The position numbers and the translations under genes are program-made. Below are positions 11,755 to 43,063 of a stretch of DNA of 44,219 nt, one piece after another; the first letter of the stretch is position 1, and each line of letters begins with the position of its first letter. Source of the DNA: Escherichia phage vB_EcoS-12210III; the sequence record MK907227.1. The stretch is one strand, 5' to 3'. Below the pieces are notes generated by a model. The model ran no database searches and was not told where the DNA came from. It worked only from the letters and a program-made list of their open reading frames with translations.

Positions 11755-11774
11755 CCCTCTTCGGAGGGTTTTTT
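11755..11774 (+). terminator. Intrinsic terminator (CCCTC-TTCG-GAGGG, T6)
   Basis: Read from sequence. Confidence 0.6.
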
Positions 11775-11779
11775 ATTGC

Positions 11780-11823
11780 ATGGCACTTTTTGCTAAAGAG
11801 TTAATCCAATCTTCCTGTATAGT
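11780..11823 (+). promoter_or_regulatory. Conserved phage promoter unit inside the tail module: palindrome variant ATGGCACTTTTTGCTAA (11780-11796), 22-nt spacer, TATAGT (11818-11823), leader CATCGAAACGA (11829-11839)
   Basis: Same geometry as the early-region copies. Confidence 0.5.
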
Positions 11824-11856
11824 TAACTCATCGAAACGAAATGAGAGATTAATTAA

Positions 11857-18367: not shown

Positions 18368-21300
18368 ATGGCTGAAGATATTAAGATTTATGGTGCTAAA
18401 GGTGGTAGCCAGAAGCAGCATCAACCAGTTGAGCAGGAAGACAACCTTATTTCATTAAACAAGGTTAAGGTGTTGCTTGCGGTTGCTGACGGAGAGGTGG
18501 ATTCAAACTTCTCAATGAAGGATTTATACCTTGCTGACGTTCCGGTACAAAATCAGGATGGTAGTTACAACTATGAAGGTGTTCGCGCTGAGTTCCGTGC
18601 TGGCACGCAGTATCAGGACTATATCGCTGGCCTTGATGGTGCCAACTCAGAAATTCAGGTATCAAGGGAAATCAAAAACGATACCCCGCACATCATTGCG
18701 GTTAACAATAATCAGCTATCAGCGATTCGTGTAAAGCTATATTGGCCCAGACTGGTTAAGCAAGAGAGTAACGGTGACCTGAACGGGACAACCTGCGAGT
18801 ATGCAATTGACCTTTCTGTTAATGGTGGAGCTTACCAGGAATACACTCGAGGAGTTGCTAACGGGAAGACAACAACTGGTTACGACCGCAGCATTCGTGT
18901 AAATCTTCCTGCTGAATTTGATAGCGCATTGGTTCGCATCCGTAAGATCACACCAGACTCAACAAGTAGCACCCTGGTTAACGGAATGCAGATCACAACC
19001 TATCAGGAGGTAATCGACGCTAAATTCCGATATCCGCTTACGGCCCTGGTTTATGTTGAGTTCGGCTCTGACCTTTTCCCTAACGGGATTCCAACAATCT
19101 CAATCAAGAAGAGGTGGAAGCTGATTCAGGTCCCAACTAACTACGACCCTGAAACCAGAACTTACAGCGGGACATGGAACGGTTTGTTCAAGATGGCATG
19201 GTCAAATAACCCAGCGTGGGTTCTTTATGACTTGGTGACAAACCGCCGATATGGTCTTGACCAGCGAGAGCTAGGTGTAGAGATTGATAAATGGGGGCTG
19301 TACGAAGCCGCGCAATTCTGCGACCAGATGGTTCCTGATGGTAAGGGTGGTTTAGAGCCTCGTTATCTTTGCGATATGGTTGTCCAGAATAAAGCTGAGG
19401 CTTACACGCTAATTCGTGATATCTGTTCAATCTTCCGTGGCCTAACCTTCTATGACGGTGAAAAGATTGGCGTCGTGGTTGATAAGCCTCGTAATCCATC
19501 TTACATCTTCACGAATGATAACGTTGTTAATGGATTGTTCAGTCGCACATTTGCCAGCGATAAGAGCCTTTACACTACTGCTAACGTCCAGTTTGATGAT
19601 GTAGAGAACAACTATCAACAAGATGTAGAGCCGGTATTTGAATTAGAGGCAACTCGTCGTTTTGGATTTAACCCTGTAGATTTAACTGCGATTGGCTGTA
19701 CTCGCAGAAGTGAAGCAAACAGACGTGGTAGGTGGCTCCTTAAAACCAATCTGAGAAGCGAAACTATTAGCTTCACTACCGGGTTGGAAGGCATGATTCC
19801 GATGATTGGAGAGGTTATTGCGGTTAATGACGCAGCATGGTCGAGCAACTATCAGTTAAACCTTTCCGGTCGCATTGAGTCAGTTCAGGGATTGCAGGTT
19901 TTTACCCCGTTTAAAGTTGACGCAGCTCCAGGTGACAGAATTCTTCTGAACAAACCCGACGGAAGCCCGGAGGCAAGAACTATTGCAAGCGTATCTGAGG
20001 ATGGTATGACGATTAACCTGAACACGGCTTTCAGCTTTGTAGCTCAGCCTGACACTGTATTCGCAATCGATAAGGATAATCTGGCGCTTCAGCAGTATGT
20101 TGTGACCGGGATTCAAAAAGCGGATTCTGATGGTTCGGATTCATTCCAGTACACGATTACCGCAGTAGAGTATGACCCGAACAAGTATGACGAGATTGAC
20201 TACGGCGTTAACATCGTTGATCGTCCGACTTCAATCGTAGAGCCTGACAGATTGTCGCCGCCTGAGAATTTAACAGTGTCAAGCTACAGTAAGGTTGTTC
20301 AGGGCTTGTCAGTCGAGACGATGGTAATTGGCTGGGACAAGGCTCCATATGCTAAAACCTACAATGTTCAGTGGAGAAAAGAGAATGGCAACTGGATTAA
20401 CGTACCCAGAACAGCTAGCGCAGAGGTTGATATCGAAGGTATTTACGCAGGAATCTATGACGTTAGGGTTCGCAGCGTATCAGATACTGAAAACGTGTCT
20501 GCCTGGTCTGACATTGTAACTGTATCGCTAACTGGTAAGATTGGCCGCCCGTCTGCGCCTACAGTTATCACTGCATCAACTGATGAAGTATTTGGCATCC
20601 GTGTTAAATGGGGATTTCCTGAAGGATCTGGTGATACTGCTTACACTGAACTTCAGCAGGTTCCTGATAATGGTGACGGTACTTATAATCCTGATAACGC
20701 AAGTTTGCTGACTTTACTGCCTTATCCAGCCTATGAATACTGGCACACACCAATTCAGCCAGGAAAGGTTATCTGGTATCGCGCAAGATTGATTGACAGA
20801 ATCGGTAACACATCTGATTGGTCTAATTTCGCAAGAGGCATGAGTACTGACGACGCCAATATTATCAATGATTACATCAAGGTTGATATTGAGGGCTCGG
20901 AAGGATTCAAATACCTCGAGCAGAATGCGATTCAAAAGAATCAGGACATTCAGAACCAGGCAGAATCAATCCTTCAGAACGCATTGGCTAATGACACTGA
21001 TGTTCGTCGTATGACTAAGGAGAACGGCAAACGTAAGGCTGAATATGTTCAGGCTGTTAATCTCATAGCCGATGAAACTCAGGCGCGCGTAGAGGCTCTC
21101 ACACAGCTTAAGGCGCAGATAGATGATGAAGTTGTAGCGTCGATTACTGAAGTTCAGACTGCATTAGCCACAGAGACAGAAGCAAGGACTACAGCAGACA
21201 CGGCTCTATCAGCAAGGCTCGGTGAAAACGAGGCGGCTCTAAACCAGAAATTAGACGCATTCTCTAATGCCACATCAACTGGAGTGCAGTACGGAATTAG

Positions 21301-23987: not shown

Positions 23988-24035
23988 CTTTCATCCTCCC
24001 GTTATGTATGCGATGAATATACTCGTTAACTCATA

Positions 24036-24101
24036 TGTAGTCAATATTGCTGACTACATTTTATTGCAGTCACTTCAAATGACTACATTTAATTGTAGTC
24101 A
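24036..24101. promoter_or_regulatory. Array of five 8-bp half-sites in alternating orientation: TGTAGTCA (24036), TGACTACA (24051), TGCAGTCA (24066), TGACTACA (24080), TGTAGTCA (24094)
   Basis: Read from sequence; spacing 15, 15, 14, 14 bp; lies between the -10 of the regulator gene promoter and its start codon. Confidence 0.6.
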
Positions 24102-24152
24102 CTTAAACAAAATTGCCATCCAAAAAGTAAAGTAAAAACCTCGCTCCCTGAG

Positions 24153-24196
24153 TTAATAAATGAAATTATCAGAATGTCTTTAGCAATTAGTGCTAT
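24153..24196 (-). promoter_or_regulatory. Conserved phage promoter unit (minus): palindrome 24180-24196, 22-nt spacer, -10 TATTAA (24153-24158)
   Basis: Reverse complement matches the family; drives the winged-helix regulator gene. Confidence 0.5.
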
Positions 24197-24318
24197 TTAT
24201 CGCCAATTTCACCACAAATCACGGTTACACGTAACCGATGTAACTCGATGTATGCAATCTCATCCGCGAAAAATGATATACGCGCTGTTACGCCAATTTA
24301 CGCATTAGTTACATTAAA

Positions 24319-26809: not shown

Positions 26810-27235
26810 ATGCACGTAATTACTGGTCAGATTCGACGCGCCCCATTCACTAAGGAAGGTCAGAATGCTAATGGTAGCTGGAAAATGTTCGCAGTTGATT
26901 TGAGTGAGCGATATAAGGATAAAGATGGGCAGAATCAGTATAGTAACTATCGCGCCGTCTTCTTCGCTAAAGAATCTATGTTAGATTGGTACAATGATGC
27001 ATTTCAAGAAGGTAAAGTTGTTAGTGTTAGCGCTGAAAGTTTGGCTGTAGATGTTAGGGATAAAGATGGTAAGACTTACGTAACCATTAACATGAACAAT
27101 CCGCGACTTGAGTTTAGTCAGCGTGGTGATTCAGCACCGCAGCAACAGCAACATCAACCTCAGCGGCAACAGCAACCTCAGCGGCAACAGCAACCTCAGC
27201 AGCAACAGAACTTCGAGGACGACATCCCATTCTGA
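26810..27235 (+). CDS. ssb: Single-stranded DNA-binding protein
   Basis: 141 aa; C-terminal acidic tail ending DDIPF (SSB C-terminal tip) preceded by a Gln/Pro-rich linker. Confidence 0.8.
   Translation: MHVITGQIRRAPFTKEGQNANGSWKMFAVDLSERYKDKDGQNQYSNYRAVFFAKESMLDWYNDAFQEGKVVSVSAESLAVDVRDKDGKTYVTINMNNPRLEFSQRGDSAPQQQQHQPQRQQQPQRQQQPQQQQNFEDDIPF
27161..27200 (+). repeat. Tandem 18-bp repeat (CAGCGGCAACAGCAACCT x2 plus partial) encoding the SSB Q/P-rich linker
   Basis: Read from sequence. Confidence 0.8.
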
Positions 27236-27242
27236 TAAAAGA

Positions 27243-27264
27243 TAAAGCCCCTTTCGGGGCTTTT
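27243..27264. terminator. Bidirectional terminator hairpin (GCCCC-TTTC-GGGGC) between convergent SSB and tailspike genes
   Basis: Hairpin flanked by A-run and T-run. Confidence 0.6.
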
Positions 27265-27268
27265 CTTG

Positions 27269-29638
27269 TTAGAAAACTATAACACTAAATGCTTGGTTTA
27301 CAGATACTCCTCCTGTATTTGTTACGCTAACCCTAATCTTGTTGTTATCAACAAACACAAATGAAGATAAACCAATGTAACCATACAAATCAACTGATGC
27401 GCCCGTAATTCCATTTGAATAATCAAGAGTTACAAGGTACGTTCCGTCAGCCTCTCTCTCACATGAAGCCCCCGAGCCTCTAATTACATTACCTTCAGCG
27501 TTTACGAGAATAGAAGTTATTGCGCTTTTTCTTGGTACTGGATTTACAACTCCAGCCGCGGAAACTACGTAATCATACGTTACGCCGTTTGATGCGTTGT
27601 ATGTAATCCTTGATCCAATTGCGCTTCCACTAGCTGTCACAACAGGCATTAAGCTGCCAGATCTCCCAAAACGACCGCCATTAATAACGATGTTGTTTCC
27701 AGGACCAGCAATATAGAAGTCAGATGAGTAGTTTATTCCTGGTATGACTTCAAAGTTAGTAAGGTTGATATCATTGTTAGATCCGAAGCTAACCAATGCA
27801 GGCCCTTGATCTGGTACAGGTAAGCATGAGAATCCACTAACAAAGATATTCTTGTTGTTATCCCTAAATGCAATCGCCGTTCCTGAATTTGCTGTAGTTG
27901 TTCCTGATGCTTCACACCCACATGAAATCATGCTCAACCCCTCACACGCATTGAGTGAATAAGCGGTATTTGTCGTGTGGTCTGAAGTGCAGCTAATCAT
28001 TGTTGAGTACTTCATTCCGGTAAGGTCAAAGGCTCCAGTTCTCTCAGTGTCTGATGATGCAAGCCCGCAGTTAGAAATAACAACCGATGTTCCGTTATCC
28101 AGCCTTATCTTTCCGTCGTTAGAGAAAACGCGGTTAATGCGCGTCTGAAAAATATCCTTTGACCACACTGAATACTTACAGTTAATAGTATCTACGCCAT
28201 CAATTTCAGCAACGCCTGCTTGTAGGATGTAAATCGCTGCCTGATTCTTGCTTGCAGCCGAGTTACCCTCAATTGTTAGATTTTTTATTGTTGTCTTCTG
28301 CGGGTAAACAGAAGCAAAAGGCCACGCTGGGTCCTGGTAAAGAACTGCGTCAACAACCTGACTGCCTGCGTTGGAATCCTGATTTGATAATGTAACTGTA
28401 GAGTTTGAACTTTTCCTTATCGTCTTGTTCTTTCTATAATCAACTCCAATAAAACCAGCCCTAAAGTTTTTATCGCCTGATATTTCAGCAAATGAAGGCA
28501 CCGAAAGCCCATCGGAGATAACCAAGGACTTAGATATAGTTGCCATACCGCTTGATAGCCCTGAAATAACTTCCGCAAGATTAGTTGAATAACCCTCTCT
28601 TGAGTTAATTTCTGACTTTGAGTAAATTTCTGACTTTGAGTAAACATCAAGATTGGTTCTTGCTGTAGCTTTATTTGAAACGTCAGAGAGGTTTAATGAT
28701 TTTTGAAAAGTCTCACTTTTTGAATAAACATCAAGCAAACCCCTTACTCTATTAGCACTTGCGCCACCAGTATTAGAGCCAGAAGCAACATACAGAGCCT
28801 CTCTGGATGAATAGGAGCGCACACCGCCCGCTACAGTCTGGTTTAGGTCAATGACTCTGTATATGTTATCAGATGACGTGTTTGCTGAAATCTGGAAGTT
28901 TTTCTGACCATTGATCCCTCGGTTTGATTTAACTTCAATTATGCAGACTGTCGCAGCTGCGAAGGTTGATGTTATCACCTCCGGGGTGTTGGTCATCGAT
29001 GATACCCGGCACAGGTAACGAGAGCCAGAATTGAAATTAAACGTATCCCAGTCAAGCGATGTTAGAAGTGGCGTTGTTCCGCTAATTCCCATTCCTGCGA
29101 GAGCAACCATAGCCCCCGCGTCTCCAGCGCTATCAATGGCTGCGATAGTTGCATCTCTTGCGGCTGTAGTTATGTCTCTTGCACTAACAGCAGTGGCGGC
29201 GCTCTCTGCTGCGGCAATCTGGCTAGCTAAAGCCTCGGAGGCGCCTGTTACTGACTGGTTGGCTAATTGCTCGAAGCGAGGCCAATCGAAAGTATCTTGC
29301 CCGATAAATTGCAGTAAACTTTCAATAGAAGTCTCCTTTGACTGATAGTATCGCAAAGTCTCCGCAACATCCTGAGCCAAACCCTGAACCGTAATACCAT
29401 CGTGCGCAAGAATCGCATAACCCGTACCAGCCGGAACTGTTTCAGAATTAGGATTGTAAACATTAATCTGCGTATCACTGATGATTTCAGAGATGGTGTA
29501 AATTTTTAGTGGGTTAGTTTTAAAAATGATAGTGGCACCAACCCTGATCAGTGTAAGAGGTGCTTTCCATGTTGTCCCCGCGCCAGTTACCTTGCCATTT
29601 GCGGCCAGCGAGGCGGTTCCTAAGTCATAAATTGCCAT
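27269..29638 (-). CDS. Tailspike / tail fiber protein (probable glycan-binding or depolymerase-type receptor-binding protein)
   Basis: About 789 aa from ATG 29638 (RBS GGAG); Gly/Ser/Thr/Asn-rich body typical of beta-helix tailspikes; internal tandem hexapeptide repeat. Enzymatic specificity not determinable. Confidence 0.7.
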   Translation of the reverse strand: MAIYDLGTASLAANGKVTGAGTTWKAPLTLIRVGATIIFKTNPLKIYTISEIISDTQINVYNPNSETVPAGTGYAILAHDGITVQGLAQDVAETLRYYQSKETSIESLLQFIGQDTFDWPRFEQLANQSVTGASEALASQIAAAESAATAVSARDITTAARDATIAAIDSAGDAGAMVALAGMGISGTTPLLTSLDWDTFNFNSGSRYLCRVSSMTNTPEVITSTFAAATVCIIEVKSNRGINGQKNFQISANTSSDNIYRVIDLNQTVAGGVRSYSSREALYVASGSNTGGASANRVRGLLDVYSKSETFQKSLNLSDVSNKATARTNLDVYSKSEIYSKSEINSREGYSTNLAEVISGLSSGMATISKSLVISDGLSVPSFAEISGDKNFRAGFIGVDYRKNKTIRKSSNSTVTLSNQDSNAGSQVVDAVLYQDPAWPFASVYPQKTTIKNLTIEGNSAASKNQAAIYILQAGVAEIDGVDTINCKYSVWSKDIFQTRINRVFSNDGKIRLDNGTSVVISNCGLASSDTERTGAFDLTGMKYSTMISCTSDHTTNTAYSLNACEGLSMISCGCEASGTTTANSGTAIAFRDNNKNIFVSGFSCLPVPDQGPALVSFGSNNDINLTNFEVIPGINYSSDFYIAGPGNNIVINGGRFGRSGSLMPVVTASGSAIGSRITYNASNGVTYDYVVSAAGVVNPVPRKSAITSILVNAEGNVIRGSGASCEREADGTYLVTLDYSNGITGASVDLYGYIGLSSFVFVDNNKIRVSVTNTGGVSVNQAFSVIVF
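28601..28640 (-). repeat. Tandem 18-bp repeat inside the tailspike gene (encodes SKSEIY-SKSEIN)
   Basis: TGAGTTAATTTCTGACTT / TGAGTAAATTTCTGACTT / partial third copy on the plus strand. Confidence 0.75.
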
Positions 29639-29661
29639 TGTGTAAAGTCTCCATTTGTAAA

Positions 29662-29678
29662 ATAGCACTAATTGATAA
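29662..29678 (+). promoter_or_regulatory. Copy of the promoter palindrome (ATAGCACTAATTGATAA) with no matching -10 in either direction, between the primase terminator and the tailspike start
   Basis: Sequence identical to the palindrome of the primase promoter (30707-30723) but in plus orientation; 22 nt downstream is GGCATA. Confidence 0.4.
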
Positions 29679-29704
29679 GTTGGATTGTATCATCTTTCAG
29701 GCAT

Positions 29705-29725
29705 AAAAAAACCTCCCGAAGGAGG
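29705..29725 (-). terminator. Intrinsic terminator for minus-strand transcription (CCTCC-TTCG-GGAGG followed by T-run on the minus strand)
   Basis: Plus strand shows AAAAAAA-CCTCCCGAAGGAGG. Confidence 0.6.
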
Positions 29726-30658
29726 TTAGTCTAGTAATTCGCTTGCCTTGTATATGCGCTTTCTTATTCCTGACTTGAAAAAATTATCATCATTTGGCAT
29801 TACAACATCAAGATTGCGATCATCAGCAACGGCGAGTAAATCAAAATCGTGGCGAGTACAAGCCACTCTCAGCTTGTGGTTCCTAAGCGCATAAGCAACC
29901 ATCTCCATATTGTAGCTAGAGTGGCAAACAAGTACACAGCGGTTACCAGTAGCAAGATGAACACGAATACCATCAATCCAATTATCCACAAGATAAGCGT
30001 ACTCATCACTTTTAAAGGCACCAATAACAGCGACAGATTGGCGAGTGTAATCTTTTGCAGCATAACTAACATCTCCATCTTCATTTATAAACATTACATT
30101 GCACATTTCTTCCGATATGCCGTCACTATAAGCCATAAAACACGGTATTGCGTGTATTATTTCGCCTGATTTTGTTCTGCCAACATCAAAGCCAAACTCG
30201 CTATAGATACCCTCATATATGCTGAGTGGAGTTGATTCTACCCTCTCCGTCCTTTCCATTATCTCTAAGCATCTTTCATGGTCAATCTGAGCGCCCATTT
30301 TGTATGGTGATGTACGAGATGCTCTTTTGTTTGCTTTTGATATAACCTCTACTGGAACGAGATTTAGCCAATCACCAAGCGTATCTATTGTTTCACTATA
30401 ACTCATTCCGGAACACTTCATGACCCAACCAACACCAGAATCATTGCCGCACTGGTTGCATATTGCTGCTCCATTTCCCTTTTCTTGACCTAACTCATCA
30501 GTGAATCTAAACCTATCACGACCTCCACAATTCGGGCATGGCCCATGCTTCTTGCTAAGATTTTCTCTGGTCCATCCCAAATGAGACAAGTAGAACTCAC
30601 CCCACATCCCTTTCATTTTAGCTATCACTTCATTTTTGTCATGATAATTCATATACAC
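29726..30658 (-). CDS. DNA primase (zinc-ribbon plus TOPRIM-like)
   Basis: 310 aa; N-terminal CPNCGGRDRFRF zinc-ribbon motif and a second Cys pair (CNQCG); acidic motifs downstream. Confidence 0.65.
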   Translation of the reverse strand: MYMNYHDKNEVIAKMKGMWGEFYLSHLGWTRENLSKKHGPCPNCGGRDRFRFTDELGQEKGNGAAICNQCGNDSGVGWVMKCSGMSYSETIDTLGDWLNLVPVEVISKANKRASRTSPYKMGAQIDHERCLEIMERTERVESTPLSIYEGIYSEFGFDVGRTKSGEIIHAIPCFMAYSDGISEEMCNVMFINEDGDVSYAAKDYTRQSVAVIGAFKSDEYAYLVDNWIDGIRVHLATGNRCVLVCHSSYNMEMVAYALRNHKLRVACTRHDFDLLAVADDRNLDVVMPNDDNFFKSGIRKRIYKASELLD

Positions 30659-30678: not shown

Positions 30679-30723
30679 ACTATACACAATGCATAGCGCC
30701 ACTGTTTATCAATTAGTGCTATT
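30679..30723 (-). promoter_or_regulatory. Conserved phage promoter unit (minus): palindrome 30707-30723, 22-nt spacer, -10 TATAGT (30679-30684)
   Basis: Family member upstream of the primase gene. Confidence 0.5.
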
Positions 30724-30727
30724 TCCC

Positions 30728-31201
30728 TTACTCTTTAGCTTTCCGTGCTGCTTCGTTAGCGGCCTTAATTTTGCGCCAGGACCGACACTCTGGCTTGGTG
30801 GCTAATTCAGCCTCGGTAACCACGCGAAGCATGTGGCGTTTTTTGCACCGAAGTGTCAGCGGCTTGCCGTTGCCGTCGAATTGCAAGTCTGGTCGGCAGA
30901 ATGTTGCGCGAAAACCTTCTCCATTTCGCTTATAGTAGTTGTGCGAAAGCTGAGCACCACGCGCCGACATCATGCCGCGCTTAAACCATTCTTCTACAGC
31001 CTGTGGTGTTACCTTTAATTGCTTTGCCATATTTGCCTTTGTGCCGAAGAAATCAAGAACAATTTCCAGCCGCGCACGTAAACCCGCTCTTACTTCATCT
31101 TTTAAAACGTAGTAACCTGAAGGTCGTTTTCGCTGCTTTTTATCTTCAGTGCGGATGGTTCCGTTATTGCCGTTAATGGTTCGCTTGTCTACTGCATTCA
31201 T
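30728..31201 (-). CDS. HTH DNA-binding protein (Cro/CI-like, putative regulator)
   Basis: 157 aa; HTH-like segment KANMAKQLKVTPQAVEEWFKRG; basic N-terminus; divergent from the helicase gene. Confidence 0.5.
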   Translation of the reverse strand: MNAVDKRTINGNNGTIRTEDKKQRKRPSGYYVLKDEVRAGLRARLEIVLDFFGTKANMAKQLKVTPQAVEEWFKRGMMSARGAQLSHNYYKRNGEGFRATFCRPDLQFDGNGKPLTLRCKKRHMLRVVTEAELATKPECRSWRKIKAANEAARKAKE

Positions 31202-31302
31202 TTCATTACCTCAATAGCATTTTTTGTTAAAAGTCATACTGATTTGATGGTATTATTGTACTCAATTAAACGCTACAAGACAATTTTTATAGGAATTTAG
31301 AT

Positions 31303-33713: not shown

Positions 33714-33753
33714 CACTAATTGCTAAAGATGAATCGGTGGGGTGGTGTATTAT
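33710..33753 (+). promoter_or_regulatory. Conserved phage promoter unit: palindrome ATAGCACTAATTGCTAA (33710-33726), 22-nt spacer, TATTAT (33748-33753), leader CATCGAAACGA
   Basis: Family member. Confidence 0.5.
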
Positions 33754-33789
33754 CACCTCATCGAAACGAAACGAAGAGAGAGAAACAAA

Positions 33790-34577: not shown

Positions 34578-34829
34578 ATGTTAGGTTTAGATTTTCAGCC
34601 AGGGCATTACGATTTAGTGCATGGGCAAAGCGGTGCAAAGTTTAGAGCGATACCTATTTCTGACTGGTTTCCTCCAGATTATGTGGATGTGAACGCAAAA
34701 ACTAAAGAAGGAAAGTGGGTGCAGATTTACTACTCTCCGGCATGCGGAAACCTTTGCATGACTGACCTTGGTCATAAGTTAACAATTAGTGCTGATTTGA
34801 TTGACTACTGGTTGAAAGAAGTTGAATGA
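34578..34829 (+). CDS. Hypothetical protein (83 aa)
   Basis: ORF from the track. Confidence 0.4.
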   Translation: MLGLDFQPGHYDLVHGQSGAKFRAIPISDWFPPDYVDVNAKTKEGKWVQIYYSPACGNLCMTDLGHKLTISADLIDYWLKEVE

Positions 34830-39792: not shown

Positions 39793-39836
39793 ATTATATC
39801 AACGACCGCTTATAATTCATTGTCAATTTGTGCTTA
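39793..39836 (-). promoter_or_regulatory. Conserved phage promoter unit (minus): palindrome variant 39820-39836 (hexamer TTGACA), 22-nt spacer, -10 TATAAT (39793-39798)
   Basis: Family member upstream of the NTPase gene. Confidence 0.5.
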
Positions 39837-41699: not shown

Positions 41700-42248
41700 A
41701 TGCAGAAAGTAACACTTGGCGAAGTTATCCGTGAGATGGTGCGTAACGCAATGGCGTCTGAGAACGGCGAGTTCAAAGTTCCGGTAAGCCAGATATTCAA
41801 ACTTGTTCGCGGCAAGCCATATCCAGAAATGGAGTATGACGAAGAGACTGACGAGATCCTAAACCTGGCAGACAGGGCGATGCCTGAACTCAAGAACTCG
41901 TACATCTACAATACCGTGTCGCGAATGACTGAACTACGAGACGCCAACAAGCGAGCGCGCTACAAGTTCATCTGGATTGACGATGAAGGCGAGCAAACCA
42001 GGCCGGGTAATTTCGACGGCGATGGTGCTGATAAATACCTGGTAATTTATATTGAGAACGGCTCTCACTGGACTGGCAATCGTGAGAAGAAGAAGCAGGA
42101 AGCAGAGAAAGAGGTCGCCATCATTGAAAGGTTCAAGGCTCGGTTACTCAAGATCACACCTAACGTTATCGACCTGCAAGGCGAGCAGAAAGAGGGCGCT
42201 CTCATTGCCCTGGCCCGTTACTATGAAATGATTAAGGAGACTAACTGA
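41700..42248 (+). CDS. Hypothetical protein (182 aa)
   Basis: ORF from the track; leader contains AAACGAAACGAG. Confidence 0.55.
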   Translation: MQKVTLGEVIREMVRNAMASENGEFKVPVSQIFKLVRGKPYPEMEYDEETDEILNLADRAMPELKNSYIYNTVSRMTELRDANKRARYKFIWIDDEGEQTRPGNFDGDGADKYLVIYIENGSHWTGNREKKKQEAEKEVAIIERFKARLLKITPNVIDLQGEQKEGALIALARYYEMIKETN

Positions 42249-42777: not shown

Positions 42778-42993
42778 ATGCTTATAAAATGTGTGTATGT
42801 AAGGCAAGCCAATCACCACAACCTTTCAGTTGTAAATGGCGGGATATACGTGGCTAAGCCGATACCTTGTTTTAATGGCTCATACTACATCAAGGTTGAT
42901 GGTAATGGGTACATAGTTAAGACGATAGGTGAATCCCTTATGATAAAAAGCCTTGGCGTCATAATGGCTAAGTTCGAAATAGTTCGCAAATAG
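42778..42993 (+). CDS. Hypothetical protein (71 aa)
   Basis: ORF from the track. Confidence 0.4.
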   Translation: MLIKCVYVRQANHHNLSVVNGGIYVAKPIPCFNGSYYIKVDGNGYIVKTIGESLMIKSLGVIMAKFEIVRK

Positions 42994-43033
42994 CACGAAT
43001 TGCTAAACAATGGATCGGGTAGTCAGCTATGAT
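42990..43033 (+). promoter_or_regulatory. Conserved phage promoter unit: palindrome ATAGCACGAATTGCTAA (42990-43006), 22-nt spacer, TATGAT (43028-43033), leader CATCGAAAACAAAGAGG
   Basis: Family member. Confidence 0.5.
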
Positions 43034-43063
43034 TACCCCATCGAAAACAAAGAGGAAATGAAT

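Follow-up and report, generated by a model that had tools for sequence, protein, structure and literature searches.

A predicted extended -10 promoter and a reversed direct-repeat copy, possibly an operator, ahead of the tail-fibre gene of a T1-like phage

Escherichia phage vB_EcoS-12210III is a virulent T1-like siphophage (Drexlerviridae, Braunvirinae, Veterinaerplatzvirus). The window, i.e. the whole stretch of 44,219 bp that we analysed, is its complete genome, and about 40 deposited genomes (Escherichia phage vB_EcoS-12210I and its siblings) are identical to it. The genes around the locus follow the conserved order of T1: a helicase gene on the plus strand, then genes for a helix-turn-helix (HTH) regulator, a primase and a lateral tail fibre, all on the minus strand (Table 1). 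The primase and tail-fibre genes are separated by a gap of 87 bp (29639-29725). The first-pass annotation had placed the start of this minus-strand gene at 29638, about 85 bp from the primase gene, and we confirmed this start: the ATG at 29638-29636 is also the annotated start in relatives, and the alignment with the PHROG tail-fibre profile begins at residue 1. Its name for the product, tailspike, holds in part. Relatives are annotated as lateral tail fibre or tailspike, which is the source of the name used here; the PHROG profile is that of a tail fiber, and a Pfam search of the product returned no match. The first 100-120 or so amino acids (29279-29638, minus strand) are common to about 900 phage records and are 34-38% identical to side tail fibres of the lambdoid phages HK75, mEp506 and HK446, which fits a conserved virion-attachment adaptor ahead of variable receptor-binding parts. 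At the other end of the gene, a symmetric hairpin (AAAGCCCC-TTTC-GGGGCTTT, 27244-27263) that scored as a terminator on both strands lies between the tail-fibre gene and a convergent ssb-like gene (26810-27235).

Table 1. Position and strand of the genes, signals and predicted elements at the locus.
Feature	Position	Strand	Details
Lateral tail-fibre/tailspike gene	27269-29638	-	789 aa; PHROG 24092 tail fiber, 2.8e-149; annotations of Rtp50, bas02_0034 and others
Shine-Dalgarno GGAG of the tail-fibre gene	29649-29652	-	10 nt before the ATG; from sequence; conserved in the nine-relative alignment
Second extended -10-like match, TGCTATTTT	29659-29667	-	Reversed repeat plus flank; putative minor promoter or pause element
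Drexlerviridae direct-repeat copy, ATAGCACTAATTGATAA	29662-29678	+	Reversed relative to the tail-fibre gene; ends 23 nt before the ATG
Predicted transcription start, tail-fibre gene	29674-29680	-	Nominal +1 at 29677, 7 nt after the -10
Predicted extended -10 sigma-70 promoter, tail-fibre gene, TGATACAAT	29684-29692	-	From sequence and conservation
Intrinsic terminator of the primase transcript	29703-29727	-	Stem AACCTCC/GGAGGTT, TTCG loop, T7; terminator scan
DNA primase gene, upstream neighbour	29726-30652	-	Pfam Zn_Ribbon_Prim, 9.6e-15; PHROG 510, 6e-96
Primase promoter, family type	30679-30722	-	Repeat 30722-30706, 22-nt spacer with hairpin, -10 TATAGT 30684-30679
HTH regulator gene, homolog of T1 gp23/Rtp52	30728-31201	-	PHROG 2856 transcriptional regulator, 5e-84; weak Pfam P22_Cro match
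Divergent regulator/helicase control region	31214-31283	both	Within 31202-31302; from sequence; layout conserved in T1, KLPN1, Rtp, CJ19 and MM01

The first element encountered in the direction of transcription is the terminator of the primase transcript. Its 7-bp stem (29727-29710) overlaps the TAA stop codon of the primase gene (29728-29726) and runs into a stretch of seven T (29709-29703), so that it presents the features expected of an intrinsic terminator, namely a GC-rich stem-loop followed by a U-run directly at the stop codon. The RNA is predicted to fold with -12.3 kcal/mol (z -3.6). The element is invariant in an alignment of nine relatives, is annotated as a terminator in CEB_EC3a and MM01, and its T-run is present in 67 of the 69 distinct tail-fibre upstream regions retrieved from IMG/VR. 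To judge by its sequence, it is a canonical and strong terminator. Its earlier placement at 29705-29725 was about right, the stem and T-run together occupying 29727-29703.

Twelve nucleotides further on, between the terminator and the repeat, we identified the extended -10 element TGATACAAT, with TG at 29692-29691 and the hexamer TACAAT at 29689-29684, 45 nt before the ATG. This predicted promoter has no match to a -35 element, and the corresponding region is occupied by the T-run of the terminator. A scan of the 87-bp gap for consensus -35/-10 pairs found no promoter, because such a scan needs a -35 and cannot report promoters that consist of an extended -10 only. The positions T-15, G-14, T-12, A-11 and T-7 are invariant in the alignment of nine annotated relatives from several genera. 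Close relatives are so alike overall that their conservation carries little weight, and the argument rests on distant lineages: the same five positions are kept in at least 10 lineages whose flanks can no longer be aligned. Indeed, TGnTAnnnT starting 35-62 nt and lying 39-56 nt before the ATG was found in 58 of these 69 distinct regions, where the background would give 0.029 per region, and the hexamers (TATTAT, TAAAAT, TACAAT, TATAAT, TAGAAT, TATACT) differ at non-critical positions only. The other 11 regions, of the TLS type, present a -35/-10 promoter (TTGCAT-17-CATAAT) in the same place.

Annotated genomes give the same picture, since the extended -10 is also found in phiJLA23, KLPN1, damhaus, SG01, Ec_L1 and SH6/T1. 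In distant genera the element directly follows the terminator, as TGATACAAT in Rogunavirus, TGATATTAT and TGCTATTAT in Webervirus, Hanrivervirus and Kyungwonvirus, TGGTACAAT in Eclunavirus and TGATAAAAT in T1 and SH6. In Webervirus the tail-fibre gene lies behind a different upstream gene (ssb), yet the module of terminator and promoter is retained. The conserved extended -10 in the gap makes it very probable that the tail-fibre gene has its own promoter, usable by the host polymerase, and read-through of the terminator would then be unnecessary. From the standard spacing between -10 and +1, we infer that transcription would start at about 29677, and purines are found nearby at 29676 and 29680. 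A literature search on promoters and transcriptomes of T1-like phages returned no 5' end, footprint or reporter data for any promoter of Drexlerviridae.

The same succession of terminator and extended -10 precedes the small-terminase gene, both in the window (TGGTATAAT, 2278-2286) and in T1 (TGGTAAAAT). In the window, this second module (2255-2312) consists of the terminator GCCCTCgcttGAGGGC with seven T, then TGGTATAAT, with the ATG at 2310. The centre of the terminator dyad lies 29 nt upstream of -12, at about -41.5, in the small-terminase and tail-fibre modules of the window, the small-terminase module of T1 and the tail-fibre module of phiJLA23. These predicted modules match the "transcripton" picture of the T1 late region, as far as it is quoted in the TLS paper (PMC11447400).

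The gap also contains a member of a repeat family. The 17-mer ATAGCACTAATTGATAA is part of the 21-nt direct repeat aaATAGCACnnnTTGnTAAAA of phage TLS, which was reported in silico from TLS and mentioned for T1, Rtp and Rogue1 (German, Kropinski, Misra et al. 2024, PMC11447400). In TLS, the repeat occurs as multiple intergenic copies, co-directional with transcription and about 76 nt upstream of start codons; its function was left open (stoperator, enhancer or UP-like), and no copy is listed in the TLS tail-fibre leader (PMC11447400). Our literature search found the repeat described in the TLS paper only. In the window, we found 14 matches to the motif with at most three mismatches, where 0.17 are expected. 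Our set of repeat matches amounts to 21 for the window, about 18 of which are convincing; T1 has 23 and Klebsiella phage KLPN1 has 17. Among the contigs of IMG/VR, the repeat is multi-copy on Drexlerviridae-like contigs only. Its conservation is asymmetric: ATAGCAC is invariant and TTGnTAA is variable.

Most copies of the repeat stand at a fixed distance from a -10 element, a feature found in this analysis that is absent from the TLS paper. A spacing of exactly 22 nt from TTGnTA to the best-scoring -10 (TAnnnT) was seen for 14 of the 21 window matches, 15 of 23 in T1 and 14 of 17 in KLPN1; when 21-23 nt are allowed, the window count rises to 16 of 21. This spacing puts the centre of the dyad near -42 of promoters that have no usable -35, which in our analysis is the geometry of a class-II-type activator site. 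The primase promoter is of this type, and its spacer hairpin is predicted to fold with -16.0 kcal/mol (z -4.8).

Hairpins of this kind are frequent in the family. Significant hairpins in the 22-nt spacer or around the -10 were detected for 32 of the 49 repeat-type promoters of the window, T1 and KLPN1 (mean z -2.8), for example at 30679-30705, 33727-33760 and 42990-43045 in the window, 41956-42010 in T1 and 46640-46696 in KLPN1. Their arms vary between promoters yet remain complementary (GGGGTA/TACCCC, GGCCA/TGGCC, CCCGGCgaaaGTCGGG), and some of them are annotated terminators of T1. This suggests that the terminator of the upstream gene is embedded in the next promoter, with the -10 doubling as the U-tract. 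In about 10 promoters of the window, a leader box (CATCGAAACGA, e.g., 11841-11851 and 33766-33776) follows the -10 by 5 nt, at about -1/+1, and is itself followed by the Shine-Dalgarno. The box reads ATCGA(A/C)AACGA in T1 and KLPN1, and the tail-fibre leader is devoid of it.

Several other members of the family differ from this standard layout. The promoter of a gene for a 527-aa helicase-like protein (39793-39830, minus strand) has the sequence AAGCACAAATTGACAA-22 nt-TATAAT, the hexamer being preceded by TGA; the repeat AAGCACAAATTGACAA is degenerate, with a perfect TTGACA as its right half, and the 22-nt spacing is retained. Another degenerate copy, TCAGCACTAATTGTTAA (34779-34795, minus strand), has no -10, runs opposite to the plus-strand genes around it and overlaps the 3' end of a small ORF. 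An orphan copy at 24180-24196 (minus strand), with only TATTAA at the 22-nt position, adjoins an array in the non-coding gap 23988-24247. This array (24036-24107) is made of three tandem units of about 29 nt, each of them an inverted repeat, TGTAGTCA-N6/7-TGACTACA, and may be an operator array or an origin. Finally, a promoter module composed of the repeat and a AGTTAATC-AAT spacer, downstream of the major-tail-protein terminator, is apparently inverted between T1 (18797-18871) and the window (11769-11850); the T1 copy points antisense and has the -10 TAAGAT at 22 nt.

The tail-fibre copy matches aaATAGCACnnnTTGnTAAAA at all 13 specified core positions and in its 5' flank (aaa), and presents TAAgt instead of TAAAA in its 3' flank. 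As the first-pass annotation had noticed, its 17-mer is identical to that of the primase promoter (30706-30722, minus strand). This identity is specific to the lineage: in relatives, the tail-fibre copy reads TTGCTAA or TTGTTAA and the primase copy TTGATAA. We considered concerted evolution of the two copies as a general rule and rejected it, given that the two copies of the relatives differ. The earlier description of the element as a palindrome holds loosely. Dyad arms do exist (TAGCA/TGCTA, 5 bp apart), but they are only 5 bp long and the tail-fibre copy matches at four of five positions (TGATA); an inverted-repeat search with a seed of 6 reported nothing at this copy because the arms are too short.

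We also corroborated that the copy has no correctly spaced -10 in either direction: the 22-nt position is GGCATA on the plus strand and CAATGG, which includes the start codon, on the minus strand. It therefore cannot be a promoter element in the way that other copies are. The copy starts 5 nt after the -10 of TGATACAAT and, with the start site predicted above, would cover about -1 to +16, within the range of -10 to +20 expected of an operator; its dyad core (29663-29677) would be centred at about +8.

The reversed copy was found in 35 of the 69 distinct upstream regions. In the 34 regions that present both this copy and the extended -10, the distance between them takes three values: 5 nt (12 regions), 6 nt (12) or 11 nt (10). 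These placements occur in Braunvirinae, T1-like phages, Ec_L1 and other lineages, and the short flanks on both sides of the copy have diverged. Substitutions inside the copy are confined to the N positions of the family consensus TTAnCAAnnnGTGCTAT, which is the pattern expected if the same factor reads the reversed and the other copies. Webervirus, Rogunavirus, Hanrivervirus and Kyungwonvirus have no such copy in the tail-fibre leader, although their genomes use the repeat elsewhere, and any regulation through the copy would therefore be dispensable. It is also possible, in view of the asymmetric conservation of the repeat, that the reversed copy does not bind a factor in the same way.

A role at the RNA level was considered as well. 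We detected no RNA structure in the tail-fibre leader (z 0.03). An RNA hairpin or 5' stabiliser was rejected on this ground, together with the fold of the repeat in the window (-0.3 kcal/mol) and a stem that is broken in copies of the TTAACAA type. A known RNA family in the leader was likewise rejected, as the Rfam matches scored below the gathering threshold (E 0.46). The absence of leader structure and of an Rfam family makes a role at the DNA level more likely.

These observations lead us to view the 87-bp gap as a putative compact module for late-gene expression that is conserved across Drexlerviridae. On the minus strand, its order would be the primase terminator, then 12 nt further TGATACAAT without a -35, then 5 nt further the reversed repeat, and finally the Shine-Dalgarno and ATG. 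The tail fibre would be transcribed by the host RNA polymerase from its own extended -10 promoter, and the terminator would insulate it from the regulator-primase transcript. The repeat overlaps the predicted start point, so a factor bound to it would hinder RNA polymerase, and expression of the tail fibre would be lowered or delayed. We lean slightly towards this combined reading of an own promoter with an operator-like repeat over its start; the operator role of the copy, taken by itself, is possible and falls just short of evenly balanced. It appears more likely that the copy dampens the promoter than that it drives it. Binding of a regulator at the palindrome had already been proposed, as repression or as activation from an atypical position. 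A repressive role is indeed a reasonable prediction, but the position is not atypical for repression, since about -1 to +16 is a classical operator position.

Copies of the repeat in T1 are informative in this respect. Those that break the 22-nt rule stand before structural genes, except for a copy at the genome end and one with a -10 at 25 nt. At the small terminase, the copy and the -10 of TGGTAAAAT overlap; at the major capsid, the spacer of TTGACG-16-TGcTATTAT is taken up by the copy; ahead of the tail gene ST33, the copy is placed after the -10 and before the ATG; and the tail-fibre copy has the same layout as in the window. Two further points weigh against an operator: repressing a structural gene with an activator of other genes needs an extra step of relief for late expression, and the dyad of the tail-fibre copy is imperfect (TGATA arm).

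Alternatively, the promoter is real and the repeat copy is a passenger that has no effect on expression, left as the relic of a promoter module or by gene conversion with the primase copy. The imperfect dyad and the absence of the copy from the same leader in several genera are in line with this view. Moreover, the exact and lineage-specific identity with the primase copy 1 kb away suggests sequence exchange, and the apparent inversion of a promoter module between T1 and the window implies that modules move. What the passenger explanation does not predict is the fixed register of the copy (5, 6 or 11 nt after the -10) despite diverged flanks, nor the restriction of substitutions to N positions, as under the same selection as functional copies. 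We consider it rather unlikely on these grounds.

The reversed repeat might also be read by RNA polymerase itself, in which case TGCTATTTT would be a second extended -10 promoter or a sigma-70-dependent pause element. It is a full match to TGnTAnnnT in the window and in other Braunvirinae, the half-site TGCTA corresponds to the TGnTA core of extended -10 elements, and the major-capsid promoter of T1 takes its TGn and TAT from a reversed repeat. However, T-7 is missing in T1-like phages, Ec_L1 and one further type of leader (TATTTA, TATTAA), and a start from TGCTATTTT would leave a leader beginning at the Shine-Dalgarno. The universally conserved element is the upstream TGATACAAT rather than TGCTATTTT, and a reading by polymerase is in our view quite unlikely.

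The first-pass annotation had instead suggested that the gene may depend on read-through of the primase terminator; in this view the tail fibre would lack its own promoter, and a factor at the repeat would perhaps help. The blank consensus scan and the co-orientation of the two genes, 87 bp apart, would be compatible with this. It is contradicted by the conserved extended -10 in the gap, by the strength of the canonical terminator and by Webervirus, which keeps the module behind ssb, such that read-through now appears highly unlikely. A conventional promoter elsewhere had been named as the finding that would speak against it, and the extended -10 at 29692-29684 is such a promoter in silico, both promoter and start being predicted.

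Lastly, it is extremely unlikely that the repeat works in the plus orientation as an antisense or divergent promoter towards the 3' end of the primase gene, like that of the helicase/regulator region: its right half and flank do form an extended -10 match (TGATAAGTT, 29673-29681, plus strand), kept as TGCTAAGTT or TGCTAAAGT in Braunvirinae, and the divergent region 31202-31302 demonstrates that such layouts with a repeat exist, but an antisense -10 at the family spacing is absent in the window (GGCATA), T1 and SH6, T1-like phages do not keep the element (TAAGCA), and downstream there is no ORF or known RNA, the sub-threshold Rfam matches included.

A reading of the copy as an operator calls for a factor that binds it, and the HTH regulator encoded two genes upstream of the tail fibre is a candidate. 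This protein is 49-97% identical in T1, KLPN1, Rtp, CJ19 and MM01, with a conserved HTH region, and its homologs were found in 824 phage records, all Drexlerviridae-like. Both the regulator and the repeat are uniformly conserved and restricted to Drexlerviridae. A sequence search of the PDB returned no relative of the regulator, and its single-sequence AF2 model (pLDDT 40) was too poor for use of the fold. The regulator promoter (TTGTCT-17-TACAAT, 31283-31255, minus strand) is independent of the repeat. The regulator leader holds the repeat of the helicase promoter (31214-31230, plus strand), and the -10 hexamers of the two promoters overlap. From its layout, this divergent region looks like autoregulation coupled to the activation of a divergent promoter. 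We view the regulator as the leading candidate for the repeat-binding factor because it is as restricted to the family as the repeat, because its HTH is conserved and because its own promoter has an autoregulatory layout. Host Lrp would be a weak alternative: the tail-fibre copy matches its consensus (yAGhAwATTwTdCTr) at 10 of 15 positions on either strand, and the best copies of the family at 11-13 of 15, for a consensus that is of low information.

It is conceivable, if unlikely, that a single site read by this homolog of T1 gp23 times the whole infection according to its position. Under such a program, the regulator would be made first, from a repeat-independent and self-limiting promoter. 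Bound at about -42, it would switch on some 15 promoters without a -35, whose spacers often carry the terminator of the previous gene. Structural genes with constitutive promoters (the tail fibre; the small terminase and major capsid in T1) would be held down by the same site where it overlaps the promoter core or start. Replication would then multiply the sites and titrate a fixed pool of regulator, flipping expression from early to late. If the program were true, it would constitute an early-late switch that operates without any phage RNA polymerase or sigma factor.

T1 is a classical T phage and, to our knowledge, it was never worked out how it times gene expression without a polymerase or sigma factor of its own. 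The gap before the tail-fibre gene would offer a compact test case, with a terminator, a predicted promoter for the host polymerase alone and a repeat in a position that would repress rather than activate. The tail-fibre and primase-promoter copies stand 1 kb apart and share the same 17-mer in what would be opposite roles, so that their comparison could reveal both the function of the repeat and the protein that reads it. We see the main value of the locus in this use as a minimal test bed for transcription control in T1-like phages. In addition, when T1-like phages and Klebsiella phages of the genus Webervirus are engineered, it is most often the tail-fibre or depolymerase gene that is exchanged, and the native boundaries of promoter and terminator matter for this.

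Several known systems can be compared with this arrangement. The closest are the direct repeats of TLS (PMC11447400), which have the same sequence and are likewise multi-copy and intergenic across T1-like phages, with about 18 copies in the window; unlike them, the tail-fibre copy is reversed relative to transcription, stands closer to the ATG (23 nt, against about 76 nt) and lacks a -10 at the 22-nt spacing. The predicted promoter resembles the extended -10 (TGn) sigma-70 promoters of E. coli and its phages in its TG at -15/-14, its TAnnnT and its lack of a usable -35, and differs from them in being fused to a terminator, 12 nt after the T-run, as a module that is repeated in the family. As for Lrp, the resemblance of the repeat is presumably a weak lead. 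Its arms TAGCA...TTGCTA fit the outer positions of the E. coli consensus, but the invariant C of ATAGCAC violates this consensus and the repeat is multi-copy in Drexlerviridae-like contigs only.

Phage-encoded systems offer other parallels. The stoperators of the temperate mycobacteriophage L5 are orientation-dependent repressor sites. The repeat is similar to them in its many short intergenic copies, of which those downstream of promoters could block transcription, and is dissimilar in that most copies of the window stand at a fixed, apparently activating distance from a -10. The small DNA-binding activators Mor/C of Mu and the Ogr type of P2 act at dyads about -43 upstream of promoters that have a -10 only. 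Here the position of the dyad is alike; however, the candidate regulator has no Pfam match to Mor and only a weak Cro-like HTH, and we know of no copies in operator position in these systems. Dual regulators are represented by lambda cI at OR and by CRP and FNR, which act at class II sites (-41.5) as opposed to sites over the start point. The repeat shows both placements, at about -42 in promoters without a -35 and across the core or start point of other promoters, and the promoter of the regulator gene has a downstream site as in an autoregulatory loop. In contrast to these systems, the conservation of the repeat is asymmetric, and its phage is a virulent one that lacks a lysogeny switch. Judged against these precedents, the locus would be of a familiar kind, in which an operator overlies the start of a promoter, here built from an already described repeat family.
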